A stretch of DNA of 59,824 nucleotides from Jimgerdemannia flammicorona (lineage: Eukaryota): the NCBI GenBank assembly GCA_003990765.1, contig RBNJ01000017.1, forward strand, positions 1 through 59,824. Reading direction: 5' to 3'. Positions within the stretch are counted from its first letter, which is position 1. Each line of letters starts with the position of its first letter. The notes beneath the pieces are model-generated. The model was given only the letters and a program-made list of their open reading frames with translations. It was not told where the DNA came from and did not search any database. Positions 1,024 through 59,824 of the stretch are shown here, piece after piece. The position numbers were made by a program, and so were the translations under genes.

Positions 1024-1098
<75 letters not shown>

Positions 1099-18600: not shown

Positions 18601-19432
18601 TGAGAATTGAGATAACTATCTCTCAACTGCCCTCTCTGTCCTACAAGACATATGGTCATAGAGTACACACTTTACCCCAAGAGAACTGCTCTTCAGAGAA
18701 GAAGATTCTGATGAAACCTCAGCCATAAATCTAGACCTAACTTGGAGACAGGTTGACTCAGAAATCCGAGACTATACCAAATCAGGAAGAAGGCTGAAGA
18801 TTACATTATCAAGTTATAAGCACTGATAAGAAAGAATATAGAAAAGAATTATAAGAACCTAGAACTCATCCAAATTAGAGAAAAGGCCCTACTGTATCAC
18901 AATATGGTAGAAGCCTCATGGTTGTGAAAACTGGAGCTCAAATGAGAAGGATCCTTCTACATGCAAGATATCAAGAGAACTATCTTTTGGCTTAGAAAAA
19001 TCTCAGAGACTATACTGCCTACTATGGTACACAGAAACAGACTCAAGAAGTACTATGAACCTATACAAGAGAAGCAAAATGTAATAACTGCCCATGAGGT
19101 TCTAGTCTGTGAATCATAACAGTATGTCCCATAACTAGTAGGCTATCTGTCTGGACTATTCTCTAAGAGATATAGTACCAGAAACTACTTATCCATGAGA
19201 CTTTTGAAGCTAGAGGAGTTTGAACCATCAACTGATTGATCAAGATCAGAATTAGGTTCTTGCTCTATATAAAGGGAGCAACCCTTCACCATTATGCCAA
19301 AATACATAGGGAAAATGCCAGCCCATAAACACTACTTTTTGACCCCCTGCCAAAGGTTATGGGATTAGCAAATTTTTCAGAACTGGACCAATGAATAAGA
19401 ATATTCAAGAAGATCCTTATTTAGGAGAAAGA

Positions 19433-24610: not shown

Positions 24611-25055
24611 TCTTCCTTCTAAATAAGGATCTTCTCTTGAACATCCTTATTCATTGGTCTAGTTTGAAAAATTTTTCTGATTCTATAACCTCTGGTAGGG
24701 GGTCAAAAAGTAGCTAGTATCTTTCTCATATATTTTGGTATAATGGTGAAGAGTTACTTCCTTCATATAGAGCAAGGTTCTGATTCTAATCTTGACCAAT
24801 CAGTTGATTGTTCAAACTCCTCTAACTTTAAAAGTTTCATAGATGAGTAGTTGCTAGTACCATATCCCTTAGAGAATAGTCTAGATAGATTGTCTACTAG
24901 TTATGGAATATGCTGTTATAATTTGTAAACTAGAACCTTATAGGCAGTTATTATATTTTACTTCTCTTATATAGGTCTATGGTACTTCTTGAGTCTATTC
25001 TTATATACTATAGTAGACAGTATAGTTCCTAAGAGTTTTCTAAACCAGAAGGTAG

Positions 25056-25060
<5 letters not shown>

Positions 25061-25094
<34 letters not shown>

Positions 25095-30877: not shown

Positions 30878-33800
30878 CAGAAGGTAGTTCTCTTGATATC
30901 TTGCACATAGAAGGGTCTTTCCCATTTGGGCTCCAGTTTTTGCAACTATGAGACTTCTACTATATTTCAATATAGTAGAACCTTTTCTCTAATTTGAATG
31001 GATTTTAGGGTCTTGTAATTCTTTTCTGTATTCTTTTTTATTAGTACTTGTAACTTGATAATGTAATCTTCTGCCTTCTTTCTAATTTGGTGTAGTCTCC
31101 AGATTTCTGAGTCAATCCATCACTAAGTTAGATCTAGATTTATAGCTAAGGTTCTATCAGAATCTTCTTCAAAGAGTAGTTCTCTTGAGGTAAAGTGTGT
31201 ACTCTGTAACTGTATACATATCTCATAGGATAGAGAGGGCAGTTGAGAGATAGTTATCCCAATTCTCATATATATCTAAGATCTTGGCCAGGATATTCTT
31301 GAGGGTCTTATTGGTTCTTTCTATCTATCCATTTCTTTGAGAGTGATATGTAGTAGTCTTGATATGCTGAATCTTATATTTCTGATATATTATCTCATAG
31401 AATCTATTGACAAATTCTGTGCCATAGTCTGTGGTGATTTGCTTTGGTATCTTATAGTGGCAGATGATTTCTCAGTACAGGAAGTTGTCTATAGAGAGAA
31501 CATTGGCTTCTTGTAATACTCCTGCTTCTATCCATTTGATAAAGAGGTCTAAAATAACTATAATATAGTGGTTTTCTGATAGAGTTACTGGTAGTAGTCT
31601 AATGATATCTATTATGATGTGGTGGAAGAGGATAGATTTGATTCTTGATGACCCAGGTGCCTGGTCTTGCTGATCTTATTTCTGTTTTTGGCACTTATCA
31701 CACTCTTTGACAGATTGGCACAAGTTTTTTTCCATCTTAGGCCTCTATATGATTTTTCTTGTCTTGTTATATATATTAGTTCTTCCTAAGTATTCTTATT
31801 TGGGTACTTTCTTTATTATTTAATACTTTTTATATTTGGATATGATAAGCTTTCCTCTTTTTCTGAGTATAGTATTGTCTAGTTTAAATTGTTTCTAAGT
31901 CCAGTTGATAATAGTACATAATAGTTCAGGGTTTAAGGTGGTTGAGTATCCTTTGCTGTCCAAAGTAGTTGATTAATCTATAGTATGGCTCCATATTCAT
32001 ATTGAATAGTCTTGATGGGGGTGTTTCAAGATATCCTTGAAAGTGCATCAGTATTGGCATTAGTTCTTTCTGAGTAGTATTTGATAGTATAGTTATACTC
32101 TTGCAGTCTATAGATCTATCTAGCATATATTTCTTTGAGGTTCAGAGTGTAGAATTACCAGACAAGAGTAGAATAGTCTATTTGAATAGTGAAGTATTTC
32201 TTAGCTAGATAGTAGTAGAACTTGTCTACTGTCCAGACTACTGCTAAGCATTTAAGCTTATATAACTCATAGTTCTGTTCTACTCTATAGATACCTCAGC
32301 TTACATAGGAGATAATATATTCATATTCATCTTTTTTCTAAGCTAGCACTGCTCCAAGTCCTATAGCACTTGCATCTATCTGCAGAATGAACTCTAGGTT
32401 TCAATCTGGTCATCTAAGAATGGGTGCTTGGGTCAATCTGATCTTGAGTTTGTTGAAGATTTCTTGATATTCCTTGATCTATCTCTTTCTTCAGTAGCTC
32501 ATAGATAGGTACTGTAATGTTGGAGTATTCTTTGATGAATCTTCTATAGTAGGAGATCAGTCTAAGGAAAACATAGACTTCTATAGTTATTCTAGATCTT
32601 GGGTAGGCTGCAACAGTCTCAATCTTCATAGAGTCTATATGAATTCTAGTCTGGTTGATGATATATCTTAGGTAGGCAATTTCCTAAGCTATAAACTTAT
32701 ACTTCTTAAGCTTGATATAGAGTTCATACTTCTTGAGCTTCTTGAGAGCTAACTATATATAGTTGACATATTCCCATATAGTGTTACTGGAGATGATCAC
32801 ATCATCAATATAAACAAAAAGCTATTTTTCAATTTCATTACTAAAGACTCTATTCATTATTTACTGAAAACTTGCTAATTCTGAATAGTATTCATAGATA
32901 GATATAGGTGATATTAGGTGTAATAAAGACTGATTTCTCACATCATCTTTCTCTAGTACCATTCAGGTTACACAATCTTTAAAAAGTACTTACAACATCA
33001 TTTTTGGAGAAAAGAGACTAGTAATATGGTAACTGACAGATAATCTGAGGTATATACTAGGTAGAGTGGCCCAAGCATATTTAACTAACAGTATGTGGGG
33101 AGAAGCCCTGGACTGGGGGAAAGCATGAGGGGGCTACTGGTAGGAGGACATGAAAGAGGAGGAGGCAGTAGTAGAGGACAGGGGTCTAGGAGGACAAGCT
33201 TCATAGAGATAGTGAAGGAGAGACAGCAGGCATTGGGGCTGAAGAGATGGCTGAGAAAAGGTAAGGAGATAGAGAAGACAGCAGAATATAGGGGAGTAGT
33301 TCTTGGCAGTAGAGGCAGTAGAGCTAAAGGTGTAGTAGCTGGAGTGAGTATGATGGCTGATAGTGATGGGACTACTAATCTGGAAAAAAATCCAGATATG
33401 ACTGCTGATGACATAACTGAGTGGCTGGGGCTTGGAAGACAGGGGAATTGAGCAGATGGTGTGATGGGCCTAGTGGTGGCCCCATTACTCAAAAAATCGA
33501 TCTTGGCATTTGTAGTTACACTGTACTTCCAAGGCCTAGTAGTGACAGTAAAAATGGTACTGGGGCTTATCACTAAGCAGGTGGCTGAGACAGCATTGGT
33601 AAAGTTTCTGAAGGGATTAGAGAGAGTGGAGGTGGGCTTTGAGAAGGCTGGGTCTTTAGAGGAGGTACTAAAAGTTGGATTGATTGTTGGGAAGGTGTGT
33701 GTACCAATAATATGTTACCTGAGATGAGATCCCTGGGTGGTACAACTGCTGGTAAAAGGAGTATCTATGGTGACAGCAGTGGAGACAAGAAGGAGAGTTG

Positions 33801-36800
33801 AGGAGGTCATGGTAGAGTATGGAGAGGTAGTAGATATCAGATTCAGAGTCTGGAAAGAGACCTCACTCAGAACTGGGGATATTGATATGAGAATTCAGCT
33901 AGCAGAGAAGGAAGCTACTGGGAAGGCAAGAGACTGACCTTTGGTGATGATCTGGGGGATGATCTTGTATAAGGTAATGAGAGTGAAGGAGAGTGAGGAG
34001 GAGGAAGAGGACTTATTAGAAGTACTGAAAGAGCTGAGTAGTACTGTAGAGCAGTGGGCAAAGGCTTGGAAGACTTTTATGGAGTCAACACACTTGGAGG
34101 TGGTAGATGGGAAGTAGATTCGAGTGGACAAGGGGTAGTGGGAAAGAGCTCAGGGACATAAGAGACAGAAGGAGATGCTAGCTAAGCTGGAAGATAGACT
34201 ACAGAAGGATGCAGATGGAATAGTGGAGGTGGGGGAGGCCAAAGCAAGTGTCTGAGTCAGCAAAGACTGCAGGAGTGCAGAGAAGGAGACAGGAGAGGAC
34301 AGGGAGGCAACTGGTGATGACCCATATGTTGATGGTATGTTTGAGGTCTGAGAGGAGGCCTGGGAGAACTTGCCTACCCCTACTTCTCTTATTAGGCAAG
34401 GCCTGACTTCCTGAAGCAGGGTGGTAGAGGATGTGCTAATATAGGGGACCCAGTGAGTGCAATTTGGAGTTTCAGAGGTGGTAAATGGGGGACAAGTAGT
34501 AGCAGTTAGAGAGGAGGAACTGGTGGATGTCCCAGAGGTGTGGGATAAGTCTGTGAGTATTAGAGCTGACACCATAATACTGAAAGGAGGGAGGCTGGTG
34601 ACTCCTAGAGGGAAGAAGGTGGGGAACCTACTTTAGATGTGTAGGATAATGAATAATCTGGCAGCTGAAGAGTTGGGAGAGGTAGATCTGAGAGTAATAA
34701 GTGATGAGTATTGGGTGCAGATCCTGTAGAGGGATAGAGTAGTGATGGTATTGAAGACAGAAATCCTTATAGTGTATCTGGAGAAAGAAGAGTATGAGGT
34801 GGATAAGGAGTAGAAGGCAGAGCTGGCAGGTGTTGTTGGTGAGAGGACTAAATACTGCTGGACCAAGCATCATGGATTGCAGCTCTGGTAGAAGGTCTGC
34901 CTGGAGTATTGGGAGAAGTTTGAGAAGAAAGCAGATGGAGATATGAATGAGCTGTTGGCTGGATTGGAGGCTCAGAGGGCTGAAGAGGAGGAGGAGACTG
35001 CAGAATATAATCTGGATAGGGTGCAGAAAGAGATGAATATGGAGCAGTAGAGAAGGATATAATAACACACCATATTTCATTATGAATAGTACAACTAATA
35101 TTTTTTCTTTGAATATGAATAGATTACAGAGTACTTCTCAATATAGGAACATTTTTACTTGGCTGAAGAGATTGGAGGCTGATATTTTCCTCTTGCAGGA
35201 TGTCAGGTGTGAGGATGATTTGGATAGGCTGGAATAGAAGAAAGAATGGAGAGGTGAGGCAGTTTAGAAGGGCAAAGTTGGGATTCTGGTCTGGAAAGGC
35301 AGAGGGGAGATGCAGGATATAAGAAGCTAGGAGGATAGATTGGTCTGGAGAGAGTGGATATATATAGGTTGGGAGCCAGTCACAGTGGGCTCCTGTTACT
35401 GCCTCACTGTACAGGGTGAGTATATGAATTGGATGATAGAGCTCCAGAAGAGTGGGGTCCTTGCAGAGGCTGGGGTGGATCTACTGGGTAGAGACTTTAA
35501 TATGGTCTAGGACATCCTGATGGATAGAACAGATAGAGAATGGGGAGCTGAGAGTAAAAGTGGAGGGCTAGCAGTATGAGAGGAAGTGGAAAGGCTAAGT
35601 GCTCTGGTAGATACTGATAGGGAGTATTAGGGAGATAGGAGGATATACACACATTGGGTAGGGGGCCTGAGGATGAGGATTGACTGGATTTTGATGGCTA
35701 GCTACTGGGGCTTAGATGTTTGGAAGTCACTGGAGGTGGAATGGTGTCTATGGTCAGATCATTGAGGGCTATTAGGACAGGGGCATTTTGGGGGGAGTAG
35801 GGATGGGCCTGGACATTGGTACCTCAATTTCTCTTTATTAGATGATAGGATTCAGTGGGACAAGTGGGCTGAAGACATTCAATTGAGGGTAGAGAGCTGG
35901 AGGCAGAAAGGTACCCCAGTTGGTGTTTGGTGGATAAGGATAAAAGAGATGACCAGGGTCTACTGGAGTGAGGCTGGTAAGGAGGCTGGGAAGCAGAGGA
36001 GGTGATGGGTGAGATGGGCTTCTGTTAGACTAGTTAGACTCTTAGAAGATTGGACAGAACTAGTAATATTAGAGGGGGGAGAGGATTGGAGATTGATGAG
36101 AGCAAAAATAGAGGTTGGAAAATTATAACAGATGTTGCAGAAAGAGAAAGAGGCAAGGATGCAGAGCTTGGTGGCATGGCTTCACTGGCAGGGTTTGGAG
36201 GAAGGAGAGAGGCTCTCAAAGTATCTCATGAGGGCTCTTCAGGCAAGAAGAGTACAGCAAAGATAGGAGGGGGTACTTGACTCTGATAGTATACTAGTAT
36301 ATAGTATATAAGACATTCTTGGATCATTAAAGGAGCAATGGAGTGAATTATAGAGTGAGGAAGAGGGCAGGGTTAATGCTGCTGCTATTGACCAGGTATT
36401 GGAGGATTGGCACCCTCTACAAGTAGATGGGCTGGGTGACTTGGTGTTGCCAGTATAAGAGGAAGAGATCTTGCCATGACAATACCAGATATAGCACCTG
36501 GGGAGGATGGTCTGCTCTGGGACTTCTGAAAGAAGATAGTGGGAGTCTCAGGAGTATTGGGTGAGATGATGGCATTGTGTGATTTTATACTATAAACAGG
36601 GAGATGGATGGGGGAGCAGGATCTGGGACTGGTGACATTGCTTTATAAGAACAAAGGAAGGTGAGAGGACTGGAAGAACTGGTGGCTGATTATGCTATTG
36701 GATATAGACAGAAAGTTGATAACTAAGGTAGTGGTTGTGAGGATATAGAAGGTGGCCCAGCAAGTCTTAGATGTTGAGTAAAGGGGCTTTGTAGGAGGCT

Positions 36801-36899
36801 GGCTCATTAGGAATGGTACAGCTTGAGTACATAGAGTTGTTGAAGGGACATGAGCTTGTGAACTAGATGGGTGACTGGTCTTTTTGGACCAGGAGAAGG

Positions 36900-38975
36900 T
36901 GTAAGAGGGTTACTTGTTAGTGTAACCATTATGTAGTTCTGGAAGGGTTTTCTGGAAGCTCTGGATATTCTGGAAGACCATTTTCTTTAAGGTTAAGATC
37001 AATTTCATATAGAGTGCATTCTCTATACTCATTGATTTCAAGTTCAGATTGATATCTTAACCAAAGTCCTTTTTTGGACTAGTTTTGGATGTTCAGGATT
37101 TTCTGTTTTTCAGGAAGTTCAAGAAACTAAGGCCAGCTTAGTTGAATTGGTATATCACTGCAGACAATACCTAATTAGAAAATTTCATAATAGGGTTAGG
37201 AGTGAGACCTAACAGAGAGCAGATTTACTTAAGAGTGGTTTGTGAGTTATTAAATAGGTTTATTTGCTATTCATGATATTGCTATACTAGGAGTAGTTAT
37301 ATGAAGGAGTATTGTAGAGAAGTGCTCAGGAGTTGTATTCAGATTGTTCAAGTATTCAAGTCTGAGATTCTGAGGTCTGGGGGAGGGGGTATTTATACTA
37401 GTGAGAGGCTATCTGGACTATACTAAATATGAATATAGTACTTAGTACCTTGCTGAGTTGGAATATAGTTATATAGTACAAGTGTGATTTGATATGTCAA
37501 GGGATCATCTGACTGCTGAGTCAGTTATATCATACAAGGCTAATCTAACTATACTATGACTGCTAAGCTATCTATAGATTTAGACACTATCTGGGTAGTC
37601 TTTGATAATACATATTACCATTGATGACATCATCTCTAATAAAGTAGTTATCTAGGAACAGTTGTTTGCAGATTAATTCTCCTTATTTGCTGAGGTAATA
37701 ATATATTGAGACTTCGTCACCATCCCACAGGATAGCATTATCTGTCTCATATACTAAGTAAGGAGTTGGTGGATAAAGGAGGGGTATGTTATCTTTACTT
37801 TCCTCAGATTTGCTATTTGCATACCTTCTATAAGTTATGGTACTATGAGTTGCTGAGTTGTAGTAAGCTGGTGACTGTGGTTCATGTTACTCATATTCAG
37901 GTGGTAGAGTAGTTGGTTTGATCTTGAGAGTTGTCTGAAGATACAGATTGTATTCTCTGGTTTCTTTGTTATAGTTGAAATAATCAGGGGTGAATGCAGG
38001 TTAGTATTCATACTAATGGTCATTGTCCTAATAAGTCTCATAGGTGGTTATGAACTGTTATAAGTTCATCAGCAAGGTTGGTAGAGTGATCAGGGTTGGT
38101 AGGGATCCTTGGCTTGAGGTCATGTCAGCATCAGAGGGATCATTGTCTTCTACTTCATCTTTATCAAATCAGATTATATTATAGATATCCTTCATAGTAT
38201 ATCTGACTTAAGGCATTTGCAGGATATAGTTATCAGAGTATAGGAAGGTTCTGTCTGTGGTCTTAATATATTCAAGATACTTATAGTTGAGTTCTTATAT
38301 TATATCATCTATTTGGCCATAAGATAGAGTAGCAACCATTTCAGCAGTAGTAGCTTGGAGGTAGGAAATAATGGTGCTATACTTATAGAAGAGTTCTTGA
38401 TACTTGCGAGCAATGAGTTTTTAGTGTTGAGATATCTAGATAATATCTATATCATAATGGTGTTTGACCATGTCTTCTAGGAGATAGCTGATCTGGTAGT
38501 AGCTTGAGATTTGTCCAATTTGGTAGACTTTGCTAAGTATGTTCAGGGCATTCCATCAGGCTTCCACAAAGTAGAGGAGTGCTAGGCTATGGATATTTAT
38601 AAGGGATAGAGGGGGTGTGGCTCGGTTGACAATAGTATTTCAAATATCAGCATAGATATAGTTGTAGATCTTGGTGGTTATGTTTGTATATTCAGGAGTT
38701 GAGGTTGTATATTTGGTTTGTTTTGGTTTTCTGTTTTGACATATCTCAGTACTTAGTATATATATATTTGGTCCTGATTGGTAAGATCTCATTTGTATAA
38801 ATCTTATATTCTGTAACTTCATATTGACTTAGCTTTATATATAGTAACTTTGGTTTGACTCAGCTTCATGATCTTACAGGTGGTTTTCAGATTTTTTCAG
38901 AGGTTGTATGTAACTTCAGTGGCTTGTTCTGAGGGTGACATGTGATTTTGGTGACTTGGAGGTTGTGCACTTACA
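36900..38975 (-). mobile_element. Solo LTR, family C, 2076 bp
   Basis: TGTAAG...CTTACA termini; perfect 5-bp TSD gaagg at 36895-36899 and 38976-38980; removing it restores LINE RT DQEKAYD; minus-strand GTATAAATACCCCC at ~37385-37398. Confidence 0.9.
38100..38822 (-). pseudogene. Degenerate ORF inside the family C LTR, homologous to the A and B accessory ORFs (ends approximate)
   Basis: A single frame read through CGA/CAR-type stops: ...NRATPPLSL...SSYYQISYLLED...KLIARKYQELFYKYSTIISYLQATTAEMVATLS...DKDEVEDNDPSD. Confidence 0.65.
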
Positions 38976-41900
38976 GAAGGCTTATGATAGGGTATAGTGA
39001 GTCTGGTTGATAAAAGTATTAGATAAGACTGGGATACTGCACCAGTTCTGGTCAGCAATGATCAGCCTACTGAAAGAGAGTAGGGCTGCTCTCATATATA
39101 ATGGATATAGAGAAGTATCATTTCTCTTGGGTAGAGGTATATTCCAGAGAGACCCACTGTCCCCTATTCTATATGCTCTCTTTCTGAAACCTCTAATGGA
39201 TAGAATTAGGCAGAAGATAGTGGGGCTCTCTATCTTTGGAATTGGGTGGAAAGTTGGGGCCTTTACAGATAACATAGTGGTTGGCCTGGGATCAATTGCT
39301 GATATTGAGGAGCTCAAGGAGATAGTGAAGTGATATGAGGAGAACTCTGGGGCTAAACTCAATTGGTATAAGTGTGAAATAATAGTGTTAGGCAATGGCC
39401 TAGTAGGAGGGGATGTTATTGGAACAATCATCCCTACTGGTGAGATAGTGTAGTACTTGGGTATTTATTTGTCAGTATATAGATCAGTATTACTCAGACT
39501 TTGGTAGGAGCAGAGGATTGGAATCTGAGGGAAGGCCCTGTAGAGTTGGGGGGGGGGTGCCACTTATCTCTAGTAGGGTATGTCTCAATTTTGAACATCT
39601 ATTGGCTGTCAAAGTTATAATATCTGGCTTACCATCTGGACTTCCCAGCCTGGGTGGTGAAGAGATTGATGAAGCTGGCCAAGAGGTAGATCTGGGCTAG
39701 AAGACAGAGTCAGATCAGTTGGGAGGTCTTATCCTTACTGGTGATAAGAGGAGAACTTGAGCTGGTTGACTTTCCAAAGAGGCTATACTGCTTGGGAGCA
39801 TGGTGGTTAAAGAGAGCAGTAGAGTTGAGAGGGGGCAGCTGGGTCCTCCTATTGCAGAAGGTCTGGGAGATGAGGTCCTTATCAAGAGGCTTGATAGGAG
39901 ATCTTTTATCATTGGTTGGGCTTTGGAACACTGAATAATTGTGATACAAAGACTTCTGGTGGAGGGTAGCAGAGGGGGTGCACCACATTGGAATTCATTG
40001 GCAGGGAAATAAAAGAGAGATAGCTTGGGACCCAGTGATGTAGAGATAAGACCAAGTGTTGCTGGGAGGCATCCCCTTAGTTGAGTTTGACATTAGTGAT
40101 GAGATAGAATGCCAAAGGGTACTAGGCCAGGATCTGTGGCCTAGCAGATGGCAGGGAGTAAGTATCAGAGAAGAGTAAAACTGACATGACATTTGGGCCT
40201 AGAGTACTGAGGTAAGGAGGTGGATACTGCTGAAGTACTGGGTGGTCTGGTAGTGCATGCTGAGGAGAAATGTAATGCTCAACTTTTGCTTAGGTCACCT
40301 TATTGAGGGGGGTTTCTTTGACTGTGAGGAGTGCCAAAATATAGAGCAGGAAGGGAGATATGTGCAGATACCTGAACATTGGCTAGGAGAGTGTAAAGTG
40401 CTTAGTGACTTTTGGCAGACTGTTGGAGATTATTTGGGGGTAGTGTATAGGAGAGATGGTGCATGGGGTAGGTGGGAGGATTTGAGGGATAGACTGGTGG
40501 GGGGGGGGGTGGGGAAGGAGTGGCTTACCTTAGGATAGATTTTGGTGATTTGGATAGAACTGGTCAGTCACTGGTTACTTGTTTTGAGGATAGGAGGTAA
40601 TTGGGCTTAAGGGACTGGCTGTTGCATTGGCATAGCCTTATGGAAGACATATTGACAGACTGGTAGCTTGGTTGGAGGTTGCAGGGTAGTCAAAGGTGTC
40701 ACTTGGTAAAGAAAGTCTGTGGGCAGAGTAGGGGGAGAGTTGGAGTAATAGGTGAGAAGATAGTCTTTATTTATAATGATAAGAGGAGGAGCTCCCCTGT
40801 GGGGATTGAGTAGTGGGAGGTGATACTGTATACTTATTAATAGACTGGTAATAAATGGCAGAGTCCAAGTAACTATAAAAAAAAAAAAAAAAAAAAAAAA
40901 AGGCTAATTTCTCACTGGTATCTTGAGTGAGACCAATCTGATAGAAGCCTGAGAACAGATTCAAGGTGGTATAGAATTTGGCTTCACTTCTAAGAGTGAT
41001 AAGAATTTCTTAAATATTTGGTAAGAGCTGCATATTCTTCTTAGTAATTATATTAAGCTTTCTGTAATTAATGCAGAGTCTTAGGACAAACTCTCCAGAC
41101 TTACTTTCTTTCTTTAGAGTGAGGACAATGAGTGAAGTCCAGGAGCTGATAGCTTACTTGATAATACCAGTTCATTTTCTTAAGTTCTGCTCACAGTCAT
41201 TCTCTATAGGTAGGTGGTATGGGTCTGACTTTCTGATAGATGAGCTTGGTATCACTAGTATCAACTTCATAATAGTACTTGGATTCTTGATTATAGATGT
41301 CTCTAAAGTCTGTGGCAAGTATTTCTTTATTCTGATACAGTATCTTGAGAAGTTGTTCTTCTAAAGAAAGTTTTCTCCAATGATATATATGTATGTGCTT
41401 ATTCTGGTCCTTATCTTTCTTATACTTAAGTTTAGTAATCTTGATAGTAGCATAGACTCCTCTTTCAGTAGATCCAAAGCCTTGTTCTCCTCTCTTAGTC
41501 TTGATGAGTTCAATGACTTCAGTGATCTTAGGCTTCTTGACTTCATGGATTAGTATCTGGCCAATCCTGTCATACTTCTTGACTTCAAATAGAGTGGTAA
41601 AGTTGTGATTTCTGACTATAAGAAAGATCTCACCAGTGTAATCAGGATCAATGACTCCTCCTTCAACTGAGTTTTTACTCTTGGTCAGACTGCTCTTGGT
41701 CTTGATAATTCCAACATGGTTCTCTGGTAACTTGACTTCAATTTCAGTACCAAGTAGAGTGATGGTCTGTAGTTTGAGGATAATATCTTGGATACTGGTA
41801 AGGTCTATTCCTACAGCTTCTTCAGTTTTGTATTCTGGGATCTTGGCTTTAGGGTGAAACTTCTTAACCTTGAGAGTAATATCTGGTTCTTATTTCTCAT

Positions 41901-44096: not shown

Positions 44097-45690
44097 TATT
44101 ATATAATAGATGCTAAGTTCTCTAAGTATGTCAGATTCTCTTTAAGATATATCTCTTAGACTAATTATAAGTTTCTTATAAGTAAGTTCTATTGGAGTAC
44201 CCTCTCAAGGTCTTATAGTCCTCAAACTTCTTATCTTTAAACTATTCTGTTGTCTCTTAGATTTACTTGCTTGGAATTGAGTAGAGAACTAGAACTTCTA
44301 TACTTTTGGAGTAGTTAGATACTTGAATGCTTGAGTATTTTAATATTGACTTTATTTCAAAGAAAATGAGAGAGGTATTTATATAAAATATAATTCAATG
44401 ATTGCTAAGTTATAAAACTAAATATAGATCCCAATAACTAAATAAGATATTTAAATATAGAAAACTTTAGATTATAAGTACAAATTTAAGTATCTATACA
44501 ATTGATTATAAGAGATCAGGATGCCAGAATAATTTCAACAATTATACAAAAAACTTAGAGTAGAATGTTCAGAATCCTGGAGACTTCATCTTTATTACTA
44601 TTATTAAGGCTAGAGATCAGAGACAGAATATCTTCAAAGAAAATAAGATCAGTAAATATTTCTGTAAACATCTTATCTATTTTGTATATTTTATATATTT
44701 TATATATTTTGCATATTTTGTATATTGATTAGTGGGATGACATCATCACTGATAACATCATCATATTCAGTAGCAGTGAGGTAAGAAGATTAGGAGCTCT
44801 CCAATCTATGATATTTTCCTCTATAAAGTAAGAAACAAAGGTGAGATCTTAATGGAGTCTAATCTGAATACTGGGGCCTTGGAATACTGAGATTAATTCT
44901 TGCAGAAATTGATCTGAATTATCCTGGAGGATGAGATTCTAGAACTCTTCTATCTCATTACTTTTGAGAGTAATAGTAAATTGGACTTCTATAACTACTA
45001 TGACCTCTAGTACATCTATATGGCAGGCTGATAATTTTTTAAAGTCTGAGACTCTGGTATACTCCAAGTTAGAAATTGATCAAGATATATGCCTGAAGAT
45101 CTGATGAATCTTTTTGACTACCCTCAATTTGTATATATCTATAGAGTTGGCATTTTGTATCTTCTGAAGATTGGTCTGAGGGAATTTCTGATAGAGAAGA
45201 TTTCTTATTTTGTATTTCTGCCACATTTAGAGGTATTTGGTAGTAGTAGTGATCCTTGTCTCCATTTTATAGTAGTAGAGAATAAAGTAGTAAGAGTTAC
45301 TAGTACTCAGATTAAGACTAGGAATCCTTCTAGTATAGATTCTTATAGCTCTTCTGATGTCTTGGAATATCCTTTCTTGGACTGAGAATCCTTAGTGATT
45401 TCAGGATCTTGAGGTTTGGCAAGTAGTGGACATTTGTTTATAGTGAGTCTTTTGAACTATTTCAGGATTTTGTAAGTCTTGTTTAAGTTGCTATTACTGT
45501 GGTTTCTTAGTTCTTCTTATATTTTTTAAGATATCTATCTTGTAGTCATCATAACTCATAGTTTATTATTATTACCTATCTTGTAGCCTAGGTGAGTTAT
45601 GTTGTATAATCTTCTTATACTCTGATCTGATGACTTGTAAGGAAAGACTGTCTTCTGTAATGATGTCACTATTCTAAGATTACTATTACA
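44097..45690 (-). repeat. 5' LTR of family A element 2, with U3 ORF remnant ~44555-45434
   Basis: Begins TGTAATAG on the minus strand at 45690; PBS-like ACTTGGTGTCCAGTGG at 44081-44096. Confidence 0.9.
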
Positions 45691-49278: not shown

Positions 49279-51665
49279 AGAATTGCCTCCTTAATCTGCA
49301 CAATATTAAATATAATTGCTCCAACTCAGTCTTTATAGAGGATATCGCATGTAACAGAATCCTCATTGTGTACCCCTACTTTTATTTGCTCGTTTGTAAT
49401 TCTAGTTCTCACGTTTCGTTTAATGTATGATGGATCCTATGAAAAACGAATACATATAAACTGAACGATCCGCATTATGTCCTTTTTGGCTGGTATGTTG
49501 AAGAAATCTTATGGTAATCATCGGCGCAACAACATTTACCCGTACTAAATTCAAGCGCCGATAAACCTGTGTAATGTTAGAGTTTGACATGCTGGGGGCG
49601 CATCCACTGGTTCTAAAAAAAAAAAAAAAAAAACGCCGATGGCAAAGTGGTTTACCCTTTTTGTGACTGGGTTTTGCGCGTCCTCTCGGCCATTGATTAT
49701 TACGTTTCCGGTAACCACGTTTTCGGAATCTGTGCCTGAGTGGCGTGGTTTTATTTTTCGAAACAAAGACACATATAGATAAGCTGTGCCGCCACATGGA
49801 CCTACTATAGGTGCGCATAACTGAGTTCTTATAGACAAACTTCATTAATAATAGAGTACTTCTGAATAAAAAGTAACCCGTTTGAATAAATATTTGTATT
49901 ACACTCATAGGTCTGTATTACATTATACTAAGGGAACGCAAAATCACCACACGTCCTAGGTTGAGTACCATGTCTTAGGTTGGAAGTACACGAAATCACC
50001 ACATCCTAGTGAATAGCGGCTCCATAAGACAATGGCTGGCAATATTCTTTGACTTCGTTTAGATAGAGAGTGAATAAGAATAGTGTGTTCCATGCCACTG
50101 CCAAATCCAGTTCACTAAAAGAACTAAAAGAGGAGGTTCACTAAAGTGTCCACCAGAATTATTTTTAGAAAATATCAATTTGCTACTATGGCTTGTTTGT
50201 CACGATTGGAGCCTCATGATCAGGATGGTTGGGAATTTTAAATTATGCATGATGATAAGAATGAGACTGGAATGGAGAGCAGATCATTCATGTTCACAGT
50301 AATAATAATAATCACATCAGTATAATAAATTAACACCCCAACATCATAATGATATATATTATTGCCAAAGATGATAGCATCAGATTCATGTTACTATCAT
50401 AGTTATATACTAAATAGTCAATGATAGCTAATTTTGAAATAGAAATAACAGTCTTATTAGTAATAATAATAATAATTATAATATATAGATACTTAAAAAT
50501 CACTATCAATAATTAGGTAACAGTAATTAATGAAAAGCTAATAAGTATATATGTACAAAACTAGTAAAAAGATAATTTATAATTATACCAATCAGGTCAA
50601 TAGCTTGGTCAATTCGATCAATATACTTGTAAGGAGAGATTCTGATAAAGTAAAAGTAAAGATAAAGCAATTATCCTTATATGTAGATTGTTAGATATGT
50701 CCTGTTTTTTGCGTGGTGCATCTTGTGCGATCCCCGCCCGAATTTTATTGATCTTCCAGGATTAAAGACTCGCTTTCATGCGTATTCGAAGGTTGTTGAA
50801 TATTTAATTTTTGGGAAGGGAGACATGGAAAGGGGATGTGGGGAGGATGCTTCCAGCGGCGGGAATTTGCATCGTGGACAAAATATTATCAAAGGCTTGA
50901 CCTGTGATAATTATTGCCGTGGATGCGTCTATAATTGTGTTATTATGATTTATGCTTCTCGACGGTTTTTGCAAGACGCTGTCGGAGCTGTTGGTAAGAC
51001 GTACGGTTTCGCTCTACTCGAGACAAATCCGAATAACCATCATGTCTAGCTCTTATTTGGTCCAACGAGGAGATTATCAGAAATAGAAGGTGAGAATCCT
51101 CTTCCTTGAGAACTGAGTCGTGGACGAGATAACATGTGTGTGAAAAGCACTGTTTTAACCAAGATTAAGAATCTGTGCATTGTATTGACAAACTTCAGAC
51201 TAGGTAAAAAAAAAAAAAAAAAAAAAACTATGAATGGGCTCATAAATTTATCGGTACCACGTCACCCGCAGTGAGCTCTCGTTCTTCGCCTTTTATTTGG
51301 CCCCAGCTCCCACTACTATTGACGCGGTGAAAAGGAGGTTTAAATTCTTTGGTGTTTCCGACACGCTACAGTCAACCCACCAGCTGTAACGCTCGATTCC
51401 CAATTCATAGTGGACAGTGTGAAGATGCCAATATAGACGATGATCCAGGGGCATCCAACAAGATGGGCGCACGCTTCTGGTGTCATTATGCATGCAAAAA
51501 ATGGGAAGAGAAAGCAGTTTCTACCTAGTGCTCGTGCATCTGATCTCTTTGGGCGTTTGCATGACATCATCCGGCGCCCTCCTTTCATAATTTTCACTTC
51601 TTAGCTTCGAACTCATCACCATCCTTCTTCTTTCCTTCTAGATCACCCGCTTGTTCAAACACATC

Positions 51666-53034
51666 ATGCCGACGACGGAAAAATACCTAATTCTTGCCTG
51701 CAACGCCGGCTCCTCTAGCCTCAAGTTCAAACTCTTCAATCCCACCAACGACTCCCTCTCCCTGCTAGCCCAAGGCAATTGCGCCGAGATTGGCACCCAC
51801 TCCCCCCACTTCACCTGCCACGTTCTCTCCCCCGACAACAACGTCGATCGCGACGAGCTCACCCTAACCACCCACGAGGCCAGCTTCTCGTACCTCCTCA
51901 GCCACCTGACCACCGTCCTCGCCGATCACGCAGCCATCCGCATTGTCGCCCACCGTGTTGTTCACGGCGCATCCAAGTTCCGCGAGCCCACCCGCATCAC
52001 CAATGACACCCTCGAGCAGCTCGACGCGCTGGGCGATTTAGCACCGCTGCACAATCACCGATCCGTTGTCGTGATGCGCGAGTGTTTGCGCGTTCTGCCG
52101 AAAGCGCGGAACATTGCATTTTTCGATACCATGTTCCACACTACGATCCCGGAGCATGTGTACACGTATCCGTTGCCGAATAAGGTCGCTAAAGAGAAGG
52201 GTATACGCAAGTTTGGATTTCATGGGTTATCGCATGGATTTGTGGCGAAAAAGGCGGCCGAGTTCTTGGGCGGGAGGGTTGAGGATTTCATGTTCATCAC
52301 GATACATTTAGGTGCTGGGTCGAGTGCGTGTGCGATTAAGCACGGGAAAAGCTACGATACTAGCATGGGATTGACGCCCCTGGCAGGTAATTTTGAAATA
52401 TCGTGTTTTTATATTATTCAATTGATTTTCCTCTTCTTTTGGCTGGTTGCCCTTCTCTATCAAATTTTAACAAACTCGCATTATTTCCCTTCAAGGTCTC
52501 CCCGGTGGCACCCGCTCCGGTGACATCGACCCGACAGCTGTCTTTCACTTCCTCCCTTCTCCCTCGTCCCCCTCCCCTAGCGGTCTCACACACGCCGAGG
52601 AAGTTCTAAACCACGATTCAGGCCTTCTAGGGATCTGCGGCACATCCAACGTCCGCGAGATCGTCGACCAGATGCGTCCCCGCAGCTCCGTATCGGACGA
52701 TGCCCGGCACCGCGCCCAGCTCGCCTTTGACCTGTTTGTCAACCGGATCCAAAACTTTGTGGGCGCGTACCTGGTCGCGCTCGAGGGCGCCGACGCCGTC
52801 ATCTTCGCGGGCGGGATTGGCGAAAATTGCCCCGAGATCAGGGAGGCAGTGTGCAGGAAACTGGCATGGGTCGGTGCCGGGATCGAGCCCGGGAGGAATG
52901 AGAGGGCTAAAGAAAAGCTAGATAAAAATGGTGTGGTTGATGTGGGGGTGGAGGGAAATAAGATTAGAGTGTTGGTGGTGAAGACAGATGAGGAGAGGGA
53001 GATGGCAGAGGTAATCGCGGGAAAGGGATTGTGA
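51666..53034 (+). CDS. ackA: Acetate kinase, 419 aa; exons 51666-52386 and 52496-53034
   Basis: NAGSSSLK, AHRVVHG, APLHN, FDTMFH, RKFGFHGLSH, HLGAGSS, SMGLTPLAG|LPGGTRSGDIDP, FAGGIGEN, TDEE; a 109-nt GT..AG intron restores the frame. Confidence 0.97.
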
Positions 53035-53514
53035 GGTTGGAGTGGGACATGTTTGATTGTGTTAGAGAGGGGAATTAAGGGAATTGGAACGGTTTTAAAT
53101 TCTCTTGTTCGTTTACATGTGTTCCGGTGATAGATTCGTACTTTCCGGAATCATTACATTTGAAGATTATGAGTGCCCCAACCATTGCGAATCCATTGAC
53201 TCTAGCACAAATGGACAGGAAGAGTAAGAATGTAATAGATGAAGCTCGTCATAATAGAATATGGGTATATAATGTAACGGTGACCCCAGAATGATGACAT
53301 CAGCACCGGAGACAGCCTTTCCTTGCAAGCCACCAGATCGGAGCACAAGAAGATCATATAGCATACGAGATGAGCAATGATGACCAACTGTGAGTCATTG
53401 TGATCACAGCACAAGCATCCTGAAGAATATAAAAGAAGGATCAAGGAACCACAGTAGCAGCAACCAACAAGAACCACCAATTCCAAAATAGCTTAAAGAC
53501 TTACCACAAATGAA

Positions 53515-54348
53515 ATGTCTGCTGCCCATCAAACCTCAAGGTCAAAGAATCACCAAGGTATCTCGGTCAAGGAAAGAATGTTCCAAGACATCAGAAGAGC
53601 CATGAGGACCCACTCAAGAAGGACTCCTAGTGTCAACCTGAGTACTGCAGACCCTTATCACTTTATTCTCTACCACTGTGAAATGGAAATAAGGATCACT
53701 ATTGCTATCAAATGCCTCCAAATATGGCAGGAGTATAAAATAGGAAACCTCCTCTGCTGGGAGTTCCCACAAGCCAGCATCCAAGAGCTACAAGATGCCA
53801 CTCCCATGGATATATGCAAAACAAGGACAGCTAAGAAGATCTATCAGATCTTCAGGCATGTATCATGGTCGATCCCCAACTTGGAGTATGTTAGAGTCTC
53901 AGACTTCAGAGATCTATCATCCCACCATATCAATGCACTAGAAGCCAGGGTGGCTACAGAAGCCCAATCCACTATCACCCTCAACAGTAAAGAAGTAGAA
54001 GACTTCTGGCACTCTATCTTTCAGGACAACCCAGACCAATTCCTGTAAGGATTGATCTCAGTATTCCAAGGCCCAAGCATCCAGATTAGACCTCCCCAAG
54101 ACCCCATATTTGTTTCCTATTTTGTGGAAGAGAACCTCATAGACTGGAGAGCTCCAGATCTTGTTCCTGATTTTCCCACCACAGCCAAATGTGATGATGT
54201 CATCGGCGATGACATCATCCCACATGACATTGACATATATGAGACACATAACGAAGCATACAAAAATGACAAATTCACAGATCTCATCTCCTTTAGTGAT
54301 GATGATGACAAGGATGAAGCTTCTATGGTCCTGAACTTTCTGCTCTAA
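53515..54348 (+). pseudogene. LTR (U3)-encoded accessory ORF, 277 codons, with one premature TAA at 54046-54048
   Basis: ORFs 53515-54048 and 54052-54348 share a frame; the copy at ~20220 reads QFLQGLIS (CAA) across the stop; the terminal ...LL* is conserved in the full LTR copies. Confidence 0.85.
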
Positions 54349-54360
54349 GTTCTGTATTAC

Positions 54361-54450
54361 ACTAAATAATACCAGCACTGGTATTTTGATATTATACTAA
54401 ATAATGCCAGCACTGGTATTTTGATGTAACACTAAATAATGCCAGTATTC
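54361..54450 (+). repeat. 35-bp tandem repeat (~2.5 units) in U3
   Basis: actaaataatRccag starts at 54361, 54396 and 54431. Confidence 0.85.
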
Positions 54451-54791
54451 TGAACCTGTACAACCATCAGTACCGACTCTGGAACTTAGTAGTTTTAGTT
54501 ATTAGAATTTATATTTAGCTTTATATCTTAGCAACCATTGAATTGTATTTTGTATAAATACCCCTCTTATTTTCTCTAAAATAAAGTCAGTCTTCTCAGT
54601 ACAATATACATACTTTCTTGCAAGCAATCTAAGAGATAATAAGACAGTTTAAAGATAAGAAGTTTGAGGATTATAAGACCTTGGGAAGGCACTCTAATAA
54701 GAACTTGCTTATAACAACTTAAGTTAGTCTAAGAGATACACCTTGAAAAGAATCTGGTATATTTGAAGGACTTAGCGACCACTATGTAACA

Positions 54792-54810
54792 ACTTGGTGC
54801 CCATTGGCTG
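54792..54810 (+). promoter_or_regulatory. Putative primer-binding site
   Basis: ACTTGGTGCCCATTGGCTG directly after the LTR end, containing TGG; conserved after the other two 5' LTRs and absent after 3' LTRs. Cognate tRNA not identified. Confidence 0.7.
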
Positions 54811-57004
54811 ATGATTCAAGACAAATCCCTCACTTTCAAGCTGAAAAACGAACAACTCCCACAATAACTACTCTGACTACAAGAGTCACCCCTGCAAGAA
54901 TTTAAGATAAGATGGAAATGCATCCCCCCACATTCTATGGATATACTACTGAAGAGTCAATTCTGACTTTTATTGAAAACTTTGAACAATATACCACCAT
55001 ATGAGCCCTTGGTGTAGATGCTCAATTGGCCCTTCTACCAGTCAGCCTCAGAGGACCTGCCAGTGACAAGTTTAATGCAGCCACCATTGCTAGTGCTGAT
55101 GCAGTCAAACTTACCAACATGAAGACCTTTCTCAGAACAACATATTATACCAAAGAGATCAAGCAAGCTCTCAAGGATCAACTCAATACTATCTGCCAGG
55201 GACTTAGTGAAGATTCCAACTCATTCTATATCTGAATCTATCACCAGATTGTCTTGGCTAGCTATGATGATGCCCTTAAGGAACAAATAGCAGATTCAAC
55301 CTTCCTCAAAGGAGTTTACCCTGAAATTGCCCTAGCAATCCAGTCTACCCCAGCTGCACTGACCCTTGATCAGAAAGTGGTCTTTGCATAGAGATATTGG
55401 ACTGCCAGACACCCTGCCAAACACTCAATGGAGAAAATAACTAGCATCAAGATGGAGCCATCAAAGCCAACTAGTATCTTATCTGCCATAGTTGTAAACA
55501 GACAACCAACCCCACCTACTCTCAAGATAGCCAAAGCTGACCCAGTGGAAGAACTTGCCAAGCAGTTTGCCAAGATGACTGCATACCTCGGTGATGTTGT
55601 TAGAGAAGTCCAAAGTGCCAACAGGAGACCAGTGCAGAGATTTGCAGCTACTACAGAAGAATGCAATATCACATGCTTCAGATGTAGAGAAGAAGGCCAT
55701 TATGCAAAGAGTTGCATGACCAAAACGAGATGCAAAGCCCAACCAAGCAATGCTAGCAGAACTAGAGAACAAACCAATGCAGTAGTCATCAAGGAGATCA
55801 GTGATACTGATGATGAAGAATACTACAAGGAGCTTGAATTCTACCCTGCTACTGAAGGTACCAGAACCTGGTCCAAGCCCTATGACAAGAAGAGCAACAG
55901 CAAGCCAGTTGGAAGACCAAAGAAGACTCCAGCTGTCACTATTCAAAGCAAGACCCAATCTAAGAAGATTGATCAAGATATGGAATTAGACGAAGCTGCC
56001 CACCAAATTATCGAAGACACTACTCCAGTCTCAGGAGAAAGTGAGAGCAAGAAGGAACAGAAGCTGTGCAAGACCAAGATCCACTAGTATGATATTTACA
56101 AGGATCTCAAGGAACAGAAGGTCAATGCCACTTTTGGGCAGCTAGCTGAAGTCTCTGCCTTTAGATAGCAGTTGAGAGTAGGACTTGCAACTATTGCCAA
56201 GAATTAAGAGTACAAGATTGTAGAAGCTTACAATGCACAAGAAGAATCTGAGAACTCAGGTAAAGAATCTGAAGACCAGCGCAAGATATCAGCCTATACC
56301 CCCTGCTAGATTGAAGACTATATCTTTGATGCCATTATTGATACTAGTGCTGGAGGATGTCTCATGAGCAAGAAGGCAATTGACCACCTAGGTTGGAACA
56401 TTGAAGAATCCACCAAGATGGTCTATGTCACAGCAGATGGTATATGAGCTATCCCCCTTGGCAAAATTCGAGAAGTCCCCATCAAGATAGGAGGAGCTAC
56501 CATCCCAGTAGATATGATTGTTACAAGCACTACCAACTATGACATCCTCATTGGCAGCCAATGGCTTCACAAGACCAAGGTCATCATTGATCTCAATGTC
56601 CAGAAGATGCAGATCAACTACAGAGGAAGAAAGGTATGAGTTTCTATCAATGTCCACAAAGGAGTCCTGCCAGACATAGAGGAAGGAGATAAAGAAGACA
56701 CAGAGGTCTTCATGCACTTGGTGAACAAGAACAAGAACAAGACACCCAAGCTCACAGATGAGCAGTGGTATAACAAGATCATCAATAGATATGCCCCTCA
56801 AGGAAGATGCCCCCATGGTACTAGAATATACTGCTCCAAACACCTGAATGACTGCTGGTTCTGTATCAGTGAAGTCAGGAAAATCTACCAACAGAAACAC
56901 AAGCAAGAAGCTGCTGAAGCAAAAAGGAAAGCTGAAGAAGATGACCAGCCCCCAGAGCTTCAAGCTGACAGTGACGATGAGGAGGAACAAGAATCAGATA
57001 TTAC

Positions 57005-57418
57005 TCTCAAGGTCAAGAAGTTTTACCCTGAAGCCAAGATCCCAGAATACAAGACTGAAGGAGCCATAGAAATGGACCTTGCCAGCATCCAAGATGCTAC
57101 CCTCGAACCACAGACCACCACCCTACTTGGCACTGGAATTGGAGTCAAGTTGCCAGAAAACCATGCTGGAATTATCAAGACCAGGAGCAGTCTGGCCAAA
57201 AGCGAAATCTCAGTTGAAGGAGGAGTAATTGACCCTGATTACACTGGCGAGATTTTTCTCATAGTCAGAAATCACAACCACACCACCCCCTTTGAAGTCA
57301 AGAAGCATGACAGGATTGGCCAGATGCTGATCCACGAAATCAAGAAGCCCAAGATCATAGAAGCCACTGAACTTATCAAGACCAAGAGAGGAGAACAAGG
57401 CTTTGGATCTACTGGAAG
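57005..57418 (+). CDS. dut: Open trimeric dUTPase domain of family A pol (decayed copies at ~6770-7190 and ~41450-41880)
   Basis: All five motif regions: EMDL (motif 1 altered), KTRSSLA, GGVIDPDYTGEI, DRIGQML, RGEQGFGSTG. Confidence 0.95.
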
Positions 57419-58644
57419 AGGAGTCTATACTACCACCAAGATTACTGAACTTGAGCATAAGAAAGACAAGGACCAGAACAAGTACACATATACCATTAGA
57501 GAAACTTTCCCCTGGAGGAACAACTTCTCAAGATCCTGTACCAGAATGAAGGAGTACTTGCTACAGACTTTAGGGATATCCACAATCAAGAACCCAAGTA
57601 CTATCACAAAGTTGACACTGGTGATACCAAGCCTATCTATCATAAAGCCAGACCCATACCACCTGCCTACAGAGAGTGGCTGTGAGCCGAACTCAAGGAA
57701 ATGGAAGAAGCCGGAATCATCAAGCAAGCTATCAGCCCCTGGGCCTCACCCATTGTCTTTGCTCCAAAGAAAGGAAGCAATTCTGGAGAGTTTGTACCAA
57801 GACTCTGCATTGACTACAGGAAACTCAATGCCATCACCAAGAAGGATAGGCAGCCCTTGCCGAATATTCAAGAAATCCTTACCACCCTTGGAAGTGAAGC
57901 CAAATACTACACCACCTTAGATCTGTTCTCAGACTTCCATCAGATCAGTCTCACTCAAGATGCCAGTGAGAAATCAGCCTTCATCACACCTGATGCTACC
58001 TATATCTATCTGCGAATGGTATTTGGAATGTGCAATGCCCCAGCAAGTTTCCAGTAAATAATGAATAGAGTCTTCAGCAATGAGATTGGAAAATAGCTCT
58101 TTGTCTATATTGATGATGTGATCATCTTCAGCAACACTGCTTGGGAACATATCAATCACATACAGCTAGCCCTCAAGAGGCTCAAGGAGTATGGCCTCTA
58201 CATCAAGCCCAAGAAATGCAAGTTTGTAGCTCAATAAATCACCTACCTAGGACACCTCATCAACCAGACTAGAATCCACACAGACCTCATGAAGATCGAG
58301 GCTGTTGTAGCCTACCCAAGACCCAGAATAACTACAGAAGTCCACACCTTCCTTGGACTGTCCAGCTACTACAGAAGATTCATCAAAGGATACTCTAACA
58401 TTGCAGCACCTATCTACGAGCTACTGAAGAAGGAGATTAAATTCGAATGGACCAAGGAGTACCAAGAAACCTTCAATGAACTTAAGACCAGATTGACCCA
58501 AGCATCCATCCTCAGAAGACCAGACTGGAACCTAGAATTCATCCTGCAGACAGATGCAAGTGCTATAGGACTTGGAGCAGTTCTAGCTCAGAAGAAAAAT
58601 GGACATGAATATGTCATCTCCTATGCAAGCTGAGATATCTACAG

Positions 58645-59824
58645 TGCCAGCTCCTTTCTCCACTACCTTACCAGTCATAAGATTTGGTAGGTGACCTTCT
58701 GTGTCCCCTTTCCTCTATTATTACCCCCTCTACCTCGGGTTGGTTTGCTGTGCCTACAGGGGTATGGTGGGAGGAGGGCAATGGTGATGAGTTGCCCCTT
58801 TATTGGTATTGGATTGGTGCTTTCTCCACTTTTTCACAGATTCTGGTGCCTTTGGCTGTGTCTGGGGTATACCTGTTTTGGTGTGGTGCCTTTTTCCTTT
58901 TGCCGTCACCAACAAGGTGTTGTCTCGGTATATCTCAGGCTACGTAGGGAGTTGGCTGACCTTGGGCATCAAGTTCTCAGTGTAAGTTACCTGCAGGTCC
59001 TTGGTGTCTGTAGTGGGGCCCTCTGGCTTTGGCGAGCTTCCCGAAGAGCATGGTTCTGGCATAGGTGACTGCTTTTCAGGTGTTATCAGGATGGGAGGGG
59101 AGATGGCCATCACAGATAGGCGAAAGGGCAATAATGATGGACCAGTAGGGTACCAGACTGGGGGCAGTCATCGGGGCTGGGGCAGGTGCTGCTTCGGTGG
59201 GACCTTTTGATTGGTGCGGCATAGTTAGGTAGTAGGTGTCACTATCGGCTTCTTTTGGTGGTCAGCAGGGTTGGGCCCCAGTCATCAGGGGGGGTCAGGA
59301 GGCCCGAGGCTACCCATTTCAGGCATCTTGGCTGCACTCAACTGGAACCAGGAGCTGATATAGCAATGTAATCAAGGCCTGTAGGCTTGAGTAGTGGGGT
59401 ATTGGGGGTTTCCTCCTGCCTCACATGTAAGTCCTTTACTCACCTCAACTGGGAGAACCAGGTCCTACCCACTGTGTTGTGCTTTGATAAGGGTTTTTTA
59501 TTTACCTGTCATTCCCTTTGGAGTGGCAGGGGCTATTCTATTCGGCTCAGGCATGGCCTTGTACATACATTGGGTTCTCGGGCATGTGCTTTCAGTCATT
59601 GGCATATGGTTGGGTTTCCCCTGGTGGTAGGGAGAGCATGGTGCATAGAATGAGGTGTGGGCCAACATAGGCCCTGCCGTGCCTGGTATGGTTGAGCTGC
59701 TGGACAATAGCTAGCCTAGGTTAATGAGGGGGTAGTGCTTAGTGGGTGGTGGGGGAGGGTTTTGGCCTATATAGTCTAGGTTCCCTTCCAATAAAAATCC
59801 ACAGGACATGAGTCCGTTAAAAAA
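58645..59824 (+). mobile_element. ~1.2 kb non-autonomous poly(A) retroelement, copy 2 (tail at the window edge)
   Basis: Gypsy RNase H similarity stops at 58644; collinear with the reverse complement of 20630-21822; AATAAA near 59790, then the A-tail begins. Confidence 0.87.

Follow-up and report, generated by a model that had tools for sequence, protein, structure and literature searches.

A probable accessory gene carried within the U3 region of a Ty3/Gypsy long terminal repeat in Jimgerdemannia flammicorona

The long terminal repeats (LTRs) of a decayed Ty3/Gypsy retrotransposon family in Jimgerdemannia flammicorona contain a sense-strand open reading frame (ORF) that lies entirely within U3, as a preliminary description of this DNA had proposed. 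The analysis covers positions 1 to 59,824 of contig RBNJ01000017.1 (hereafter the window, 59,824 nucleotides (nt) in length), in which the ORF occupies 53515-54348 of the plus strand. It opens with ATG, runs for 277 codons and closes with TAA, beginning 242 nt into an LTR that spans 53273-54791 and ending 443 nt short of the end of that LTR and 205 nt upstream of TATAAATA. The ORF is assigned to U3 because the conserved TATA box and AATAAA signal lie downstream of it. Taking the best explanation as a whole, we consider it likely that the ancestors of the window copies were open and evolved under coding constraint, and that the ORF is a genuine accessory gene.

The LTR at these coordinates, copy A (1519 nt, with TG..CA ends), is the 5' LTR of a Ty3/Gypsy element, as delimited by blastn and MAFFT alignment. 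Five further copies, B to F, were recovered in the window by blastn:

53515..54348, plus strand: LTR-borne ORF, 277 codons plus stop; pseudogene in copy A
53273..54791, plus strand: LTR copy A, 5' LTR; limits from alignment to the five other copies and from contig flanks
~9383-10997, minus strand: LTR copy B, 5' LTR; ORF at ~9881-10739, with a +4 frameshift common to C and 4 internal stops
19432-20597 plus 21900-22277, plus strand: LTR copy C, 3' LTR; 1.3 kb insertion at 20598-21899; ORF at ~19691-20564
22970-24611, minus strand: LTR copy D, 3' LTR of element E...D; ORF at ~23467-24354, in frame with A, 891 nt
44097-45690, minus strand: LTR copy E, 5' LTR of element E...D; ORF at ~44558-45433, in frame with A, 879 nt
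5614-6370, minus strand: LTR fragment F, LTR positions 37-793; nearest to A; holds the first 183 codons of the ORF

The first question raised by such a placement is whether the repeat has been misdelimited, the ORF being an ordinary internal ORF3 between pol and the true 3' LTR; passages of PMC5408684 and PMC2864245 place the extra ORFs of LTR retrotransposons usually in the internal region. The structure of the element renders this extremely improbable. In the 5' LTRs A, B and E, the repeat that holds the ORF leads directly into the primer-binding site (PBS) and gag, and in the 3' LTRs C and D a purine tract, the polypurine tract (PPT), stands immediately before it, the pol remnants having stopped about 300 nt earlier. 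The ORF is thus found neither between pol and the PPT/3' LTR nor between the 5' LTR and gag, and the purine tract lies upstream of it. Contigs of other sequencing runs break exactly at 53272/53273 and 54791/54792: the same purine tract abuts position 53273 in six contigs of soil run X3 and one contig of X6, and the flanks of contigs from runs X1 and X2 turn unrelated just past 54791/54792. Copy alignment, PBS, purine tract and contig breaks hence agree on boundaries that include the ORF, and the TG..CA ends, the PBS after 5' copies and the PPT before 3' copies are as the preliminary description gave them. The signals placed by these boundaries are the following:

53428..53435, plus strand: TATA-like box TATAAAAG, some 80 nt 5' of the ATG; present in this form in A, B, C and F, as TATAAG in D and E
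54355..54445, plus strand: 35-nt tandem repeat, 2.6 copies, directly 3' of the ORF stop; the only hypervariable part of the LTR
54553..54560, plus strand: TATA box TATAAATA, conserved in A to E; presumed promoter of the genomic RNA, in the U3/R border region
54580..54585, plus strand: AATAAA poly(A) signal, conserved in A to E
54794..54807, plus strand: PBS, TTGGTGCCCATTGG, kept after LTRs A, B and E, with gag next

The TATA box and AATAAA signal fall within 54513-54592, among the best conserved blocks of the LTR (all-five identity 0.72-0.78), and the tandem repeat may be enhancer-like. No tRNA genes were found in the window, and a search of 53000-55200 against Rfam gave four matches, each far under its gathering score. 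A 32-nt R/U5 stretch (~54636-54670) matches six marine metagenome contigs (L001-L006, retrieved with a 23-base conserved LTR word) at 97% identity; these were rejected as relatives, the likeness ending beyond about 32 nt, and the match is probably fortuitous or due to A/G-rich sequence of low complexity.

The longest stop-free run in the LTR measures 183 codons, against at most 112 codons in the other five frames, and an open run of at least 183 codons in any of the six frames arose in 2 of 2000 dinucleotide shuffles (mean 85.7). Copy A has the single internal stop that had been described, TAA at 54046-54048 (codon 178). This codon is also TAA in B, D and F and, as reported for the copy near 20220, CAA in C (20226-20228); to this E has to be added, such that two of the six copies carry CAA. 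The terminal TAA is common to all five LTRs that extend that far (A-E), again as described. Internal stops occur at 16 codon sites over the six copies, every one being a single C>T or G>A step from a sense codon (CAA, CAG, TGG and others) present in another copy, and the same codon was often hit independently (e.g., codon 165, with TGA in D and F but TAG in E). Transitions make up 486 of 577 biallelic alignment columns, with transition:transversion counts of 79:0 between A and F, 205:13 between B and C and 236:12 between D and E, and the observed/expected ratio of CpG is 0.00-0.21 in the repeats versus 1.03-1.05 in two genic stretches. All six window copies are pseudogenes, ruined by the C>T/G>A hypermutation that affects every repeat in the window.

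Ancestral sequences were reconstructed by assigning C to every C/T column and G to every A/G column. With these changes reverted, the ancestor of A, B, C and F is open, with no stop in 277 codons, and that of D and E has one, as opposed to 6-18 stops in the other two frames of the same columns. As a neutral baseline, we took the two LTRs of one element, which diverge only after insertion. Differences between lineages are distributed over the three codon positions as 46/39/90, compared to 96/65/94 within elements (B-C plus D-E; contingency p=0.008), a moderate bias between subfamilies. Synonymous and non-synonymous changes stand at 77:98 between lineages versus 86:169 within elements (Fisher p=0.034), and at 38:33 among fixed differences between A/B/C and D/E versus 64:111 among singletons (p=0.016). 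Relative to A, the only indels of D are -6, +12, +24 and +27, all in frame, and those of E are -6, +24 and +27 plus a compensated -1/+1. Among the 24 best-supported read variants within the ORF, 16 alter a residue, and 14 of these 16 are toward the homologue majority and none away from it.

Homologues of the protein exist outside the window. Five matches were obtained in a collection of 5.8 billion clusters, an exhaustive HMMER profile search of 1.84 billion representatives gave six with E<=0.001, and a profile word search gave eight; together with cluster members, the relatives number P0002-P0016. Their open frames are 87-342 aa in length and 21-79% identical to P0003, a full-length relative of 271 aa used as the reference. 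Those whose N-terminus is present start with MPA.R, and conserved blocks are common to all. That a frame should remain open over such divergence would be hard to explain without coding constraint. A peptide-pattern scan of metagenome contigs for the DNA of relatives matched 594 stretches, none of which was confirmed.

These data bear on the possibility that the region is conserved non-coding U3, with an enhancer or packaging role, which is open by accident and yields no protein. In its favor, the 240 nt before the ATG are as conserved as the ORF at the purine/pyrimidine level (0.90-1.00 in both), and transition hypermutation alone depresses the apparent dN/dS. Against it stand the rarity of comparable runs in shuffled sequence, the stop-free reverted ancestor, the third-position excess between lineages, the indels in multiples of three and the conserved residue blocks of diverged but open relatives. 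We accordingly regard a purely non-coding origin of the frame as highly unlikely.

The region is also represented in RNA. Runs X1 and X2, which derive from organism A in two studies, are labeled only as guessed RNA. In both, the acetate-kinase contig joins across a 109-nt GT..AG intron (52385-52493), and because this contig is spliced the two runs are cDNA-derived. Both hold LTR-family contigs over the ORF, with a likeness of 85-95%. RNA of the LTR family that contains the ORF region thus exists, the contigs giving no strand, ends or level. LTR bins are covered in X1/X2 and the gag bins at 54834-55421 are without cover, which we do not count in favor of LTR-only transcripts; likewise, the depths of LTR and acetate kinase (142-8765 versus 18.9 in X2; 6-43 versus 119 in X1) are not used to rank expression. 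The acetate kinase gene itself (51642-53034; Pfam Acetate_kinase) is intron-bearing and adjoins the nest of decayed repeats, and its product matches PDB entries that give no taxonomic signal. The mRNA contigs of the gene stop at 53265 and 53238, slightly short of the LTR start at 53273, which places the LTR at or just past the 3' end of the gene.

Several observations weigh against a genuine gene. Although the Nei-Gojobori dN/dS between lineage ancestors is 0.25, versus 1.03 and 1.24 in control frames, the baseline is itself below 1 (apparent dN/dS of 0.65 for B-C, 0.34 for D-E and 0.53 for A-F), an effect of the abundance of C at third positions (120 C of 274) and of a mutation process biased toward transitions; the value of 0.25 therefore flatters the coding case. 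Measured against such a baseline, the window by itself gives a selection signal of moderate strength (p 0.008-0.03). The transversions, distributed as 12/10/19 by codon position, are too few to be significant when taken separately. The family of relatives is tiny, with the six representatives at E<=0.001 among 1.84 billion and no member from an annotated genome; its open members are a selected sample, since gene callers report only open frames. The ESM Atlas model of P0003 has a pLDDT of 0.35, and the protein may be largely disordered. Translation, RNA strand, start site and splicing would lie beyond the reach of the contigs. The flanks of E...D, which are AT-rich and hypermutated, have no clear 4-5 bp target-site duplication.

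A further such point is the +4 frameshift common to B and C, the two halves of one element. Since both LTRs share it, the parent RNA was already frameshifted; the element integrated with a dead ORF, from which it follows that the gene was not needed in cis, the protein being either supplied in trans or dispensable. The latter would suit a passenger, i.e., a host or foreign fragment captured by an ancestral LTR, briefly open, that never served the element and persists by LTR copying. The want of an assignable function and the moderate selection signal in the window point the same way. However, a passenger would not be expected to remain open in relatives down to 21-48% identity, to stay in frame in D/E through four in-frame indels, or to show a third-position excess between lineages over the within-element baseline. 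Moreover, the relatives come solely from environmental contigs (ENA or JGI, 600-4848 nt in length), where they are either unnamed or entered as 'hypothetical protein', and a search for fused forms among proteins of 600-2000 aa matched none, which is weak evidence against capture. On balance, we think a passenger unlikely, and favor a genuine accessory gene of the element.

The product has no nameable domain, as had been stated from the outset: Pfam (11 members, E<=1), PDB chains (E<=10), PHROGs and NCBIfam gave no family match. A sub-threshold Pfam match to ATG5_HBR (E 0.03-0.09) was treated as chance, and the ESM Atlas queried with P0003 returned feature scores of at most 0.83 and structural TM of at most 0.41, with no usable neighbor. 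The members of the family nevertheless share a layout in which a conserved core lies between a basic N-terminus and an acidic tail. The pI is 4.5-4.9, except for 6.0 in the most distant member, and the net charge of P0003 is +8 in the first 60 residues and -14 over residues 211-270. Motifs of the type D-L-I-x-F-E/S-D and V-L-N-F-L in the tail persist even in 41-48% identical relatives. There is no membrane segment, the maximal 19-residue Kyte-Doolittle mean being 0.55-0.74 in five family members (0.74 in P0003). Judged by composition alone, the product would be soluble, probably nuclear, and active in trans, its acidic tail serving for activation or for the binding of a partner; a role in transactivation or against silencing, named as speculation in the preliminary description, would likewise be conjectural. 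That the product served the element in trans, most likely as a transcriptional activator or counter-silencing factor, is put forward tentatively, as one possibility with rather less than an even prospect of being right.

How the gene would be expressed is constrained by its position. Lying upstream of the genomic TATA box, it would not be part of the 5' end of the genomic RNA and would have to be read from a 3'-coterminal message. The TATA-like box at 53428-53435 is a candidate promoter of the LTR gene. The message would most likely start at this box in U3 and end at the LTR's own AATAAA, giving an RNA of about 1.1 kb that could be made from any LTR, comparable to promoter P2 and sag in mouse mammary tumor virus (MMTV). 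The predicted product would be a soluble acidic protein of about 271-277 aa, with the basic N-terminus, conserved core and acidic tail with two hydrophobic motifs. The alternative route is a spliced subgenomic RNA off the 5' LTR promoter, in which case the gene would be real and the U3 promoter not its source. By position, the ORF lies at the 3' end of every genomic RNA, and the ORF3s of LTR retrotransposons are typically separate units from spliced messages, according to a passage of PMC5408684. Conversely, the TATA-like box is kept in all six copies, if as TATAAG in two; a fungal-type GTRNGY donor was found in none of three leaders (A, B and E) between the TATA box and the gag start, which is weak evidence as donors further in were not searched; and no contig joins leader to U3, again weak since rare forms drop from contigs. 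We hold the spliced route to be a minority possibility, though a serious one.

If the U3 promoter were the source, each LTR, solo LTRs included, could form a complete gene by itself, comprising U3 promoter, 277-codon ORF and the LTR's own poly(A) signal and encoding a nuclear regulator of novel fold that activates the LTR promoters of the family or blunts silencing. In this full form the proposal is doubtful. Were it true, live elements would go on being supplied in trans by dead ones and by solo LTRs, and fungal Metaviridae would have in this gene their equivalent of MMTV sag/Naf or foamy-virus Tas.

The carrier is a Ty3/Gypsy element (Metaviridae), whose pol order is PR-dUTPase-RT-RNaseH-IN, with integrase last. 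In element A, the internal region is represented by:

54912..58650, plus strand: decayed gag-pol of element A, from Pfam and a blastn map; broken near 58650 by another insertion
55392-56084, plus strand: zf-CCHC (Pfam)
56640-57917, plus strand: dUTPase (Pfam, E 2.6e-27), between the zinc-knuckle/protease region and RT
57686-58054, plus strand: RT (Pfam)
58238-58630, plus strand: RNase H (Pfam)

Upstream of LTR C, Pfam detects RVT_1, RNase H, Integrase_H2C2 and rve; no protease model of Pfam matched in the pol of the element. By the blastn map, E...D is one minus-strand element with two insertions inside it, and a second element is represented by its two halves, B and C together with their internal parts, which are now mutually inverted. 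The ORF is present in both LTRs of each of these two elements, as expected from the earlier claim of two gene copies per insertion; since U3 is placed at both ends during reverse transcription, two copies of the gene come with each new insertion. The 5' half (6372-11003, minus) and the 3' half (16762-22277, plus) of the B/C element join at the equivalents of element A positions 57816/57818, and LTR fragment F adjoins the break between them, an arrangement suggestive of an inversion or of rearrangement after a nested insertion.

Other repeats have invaded the same region. The 1.3 kb insertion at 20598-21899 in LTR C is 79% identical, in inverted orientation, to 58654-59824, the sequence that interrupts the pol of element A from about 58650. 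A long T run opens the insertion in C and, likewise, the sequence that truncates fragment F at about 5614. The inserting sequence is probably a poly(A)-tailed retroelement family that entered this Gypsy family repeatedly. A further repeat family occupies the blocks 3000-6000, 25000-31000, 33000-37000 and 39000-41000, with a GC skew of about +/-0.4-0.5 and a CpG observed/expected ratio of 0.00-0.21; C makes up only 11.6% of its G-rich strand at 33000-37000. This strand gives a weak Exo_endo_phos endonuclease match (E 1.7e-4, under Pfam's cut-off), which makes a non-LTR (LINE-like) retrotransposon the probable identity of the family. On the G-poor strand, the long ORFs have no Pfam match and look like composition artifacts.

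An accessory gene resident in U3 is, as such, already known, MMTV being the single familiar carrier of an ORF there, and by analogy MMTV sag/Naf would be the closest counterpart. In passages of PMC9412291, the sag/Naf ORF of MMTV lies in U3 with its own U3 promoter, P2, and the virus also encodes a dUTPase. The present ORF resembles it in being a sense ORF confined to U3, 5' of the main LTR promoter, and hence doubled at both ends, and the carrier element too combines a dUTPase with a U3 ORF. The two differ in several respects. Pfam includes a Sag model, and MMTV Sag is a type II membrane glycoprotein with a hydrophobic anchor; in contrast, the LTR protein lacks a hydrophobic segment and sequence homology to Sag (no Pfam family for the 11 members and no PDB chain at E<=10), and its carrier is an env-less Ty3/Gypsy element in a probably fungal genome rather than a vertebrate retrovirus. 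The nef gene of human and simian immunodeficiency viruses (HIV/SIV) and foamy-virus tas/bel-2 begin in the internal region and merely overlap U3. Foamy Tas, a transactivator with an acidic activation domain, is similar in size to the LTR protein. Like nef and tas/bel-2, the present ORF is an accessory gene at the 3' end that shares sequence with the LTR; unlike them, it starts inside the LTR. The foamy-virus names tas and bel-2 are those of a figure legend of PMC7828637.

Among retrotransposons, bdelloid Juno, Vesta and TelKA, plant Athila/Tat and Botrytis Boty (brtn) have lineage-specific extra ORFs beyond gag-pol, and the bdelloid lineages also carry a dUTPase (passages of PMC5408684). The present ORF is, like these ORF3, env-like and brtn ORFs, a lineage-specific addition to gag-pol of unknown or varied function; it differs in lying inside the LTR, where those passages place none of them. 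As a rule, these ORFs occupy the stretch from pol to the LTR or else precede gag. Boty brtn is reportedly antisense, to go by the title of Zhao et al. from 2011, whereas the present ORF is sense. The dUTPase backbone of the window element is like that of PosPlaTy3-5 of Postia placenta, in which the dUTPase lies between PR and RT, and dUTPase-bearing elements of Phanerochaete and Tuber are also on record (passages of PMC2864245). A figure legend of the same paper mentions, for some fungal elements, an 'add. ORF' with no assigned function, its position not being stated in the text of those passages, and this ORF may overlap the gene described here. Full-text literature searches, whose coverage leaves subscription journals outside, brought up no description of a Ty3/Gypsy LTR with a protein ORF inside it; the candidates PMC6673714, PMC11302176, PMC4031123 and PMC12037069 proved irrelevant. 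What appears to be new is hence a U3-resident accessory gene in an env-less fungal-type Gypsy element, and a protein family without known relatives.

LTRs are treated as non-coding control regions, and as a consequence repeat masking hides what they encode; that no member of the family comes from an annotated genome is in line with this. If the proposal is true, solo LTRs can be coding, and the protein would offer a small and tractable candidate for retrotransposon self-regulation or anti-defense in a host that hypermutates its repeats. The device of an LTR accessory gene, known from complex retroviruses, would then also have arisen in an env-less Ty3/Gypsy lineage outside animals, and the parallel with MMTV, in which a dUTPase and a U3 ORF are likewise combined, makes such convergent evolution testable.

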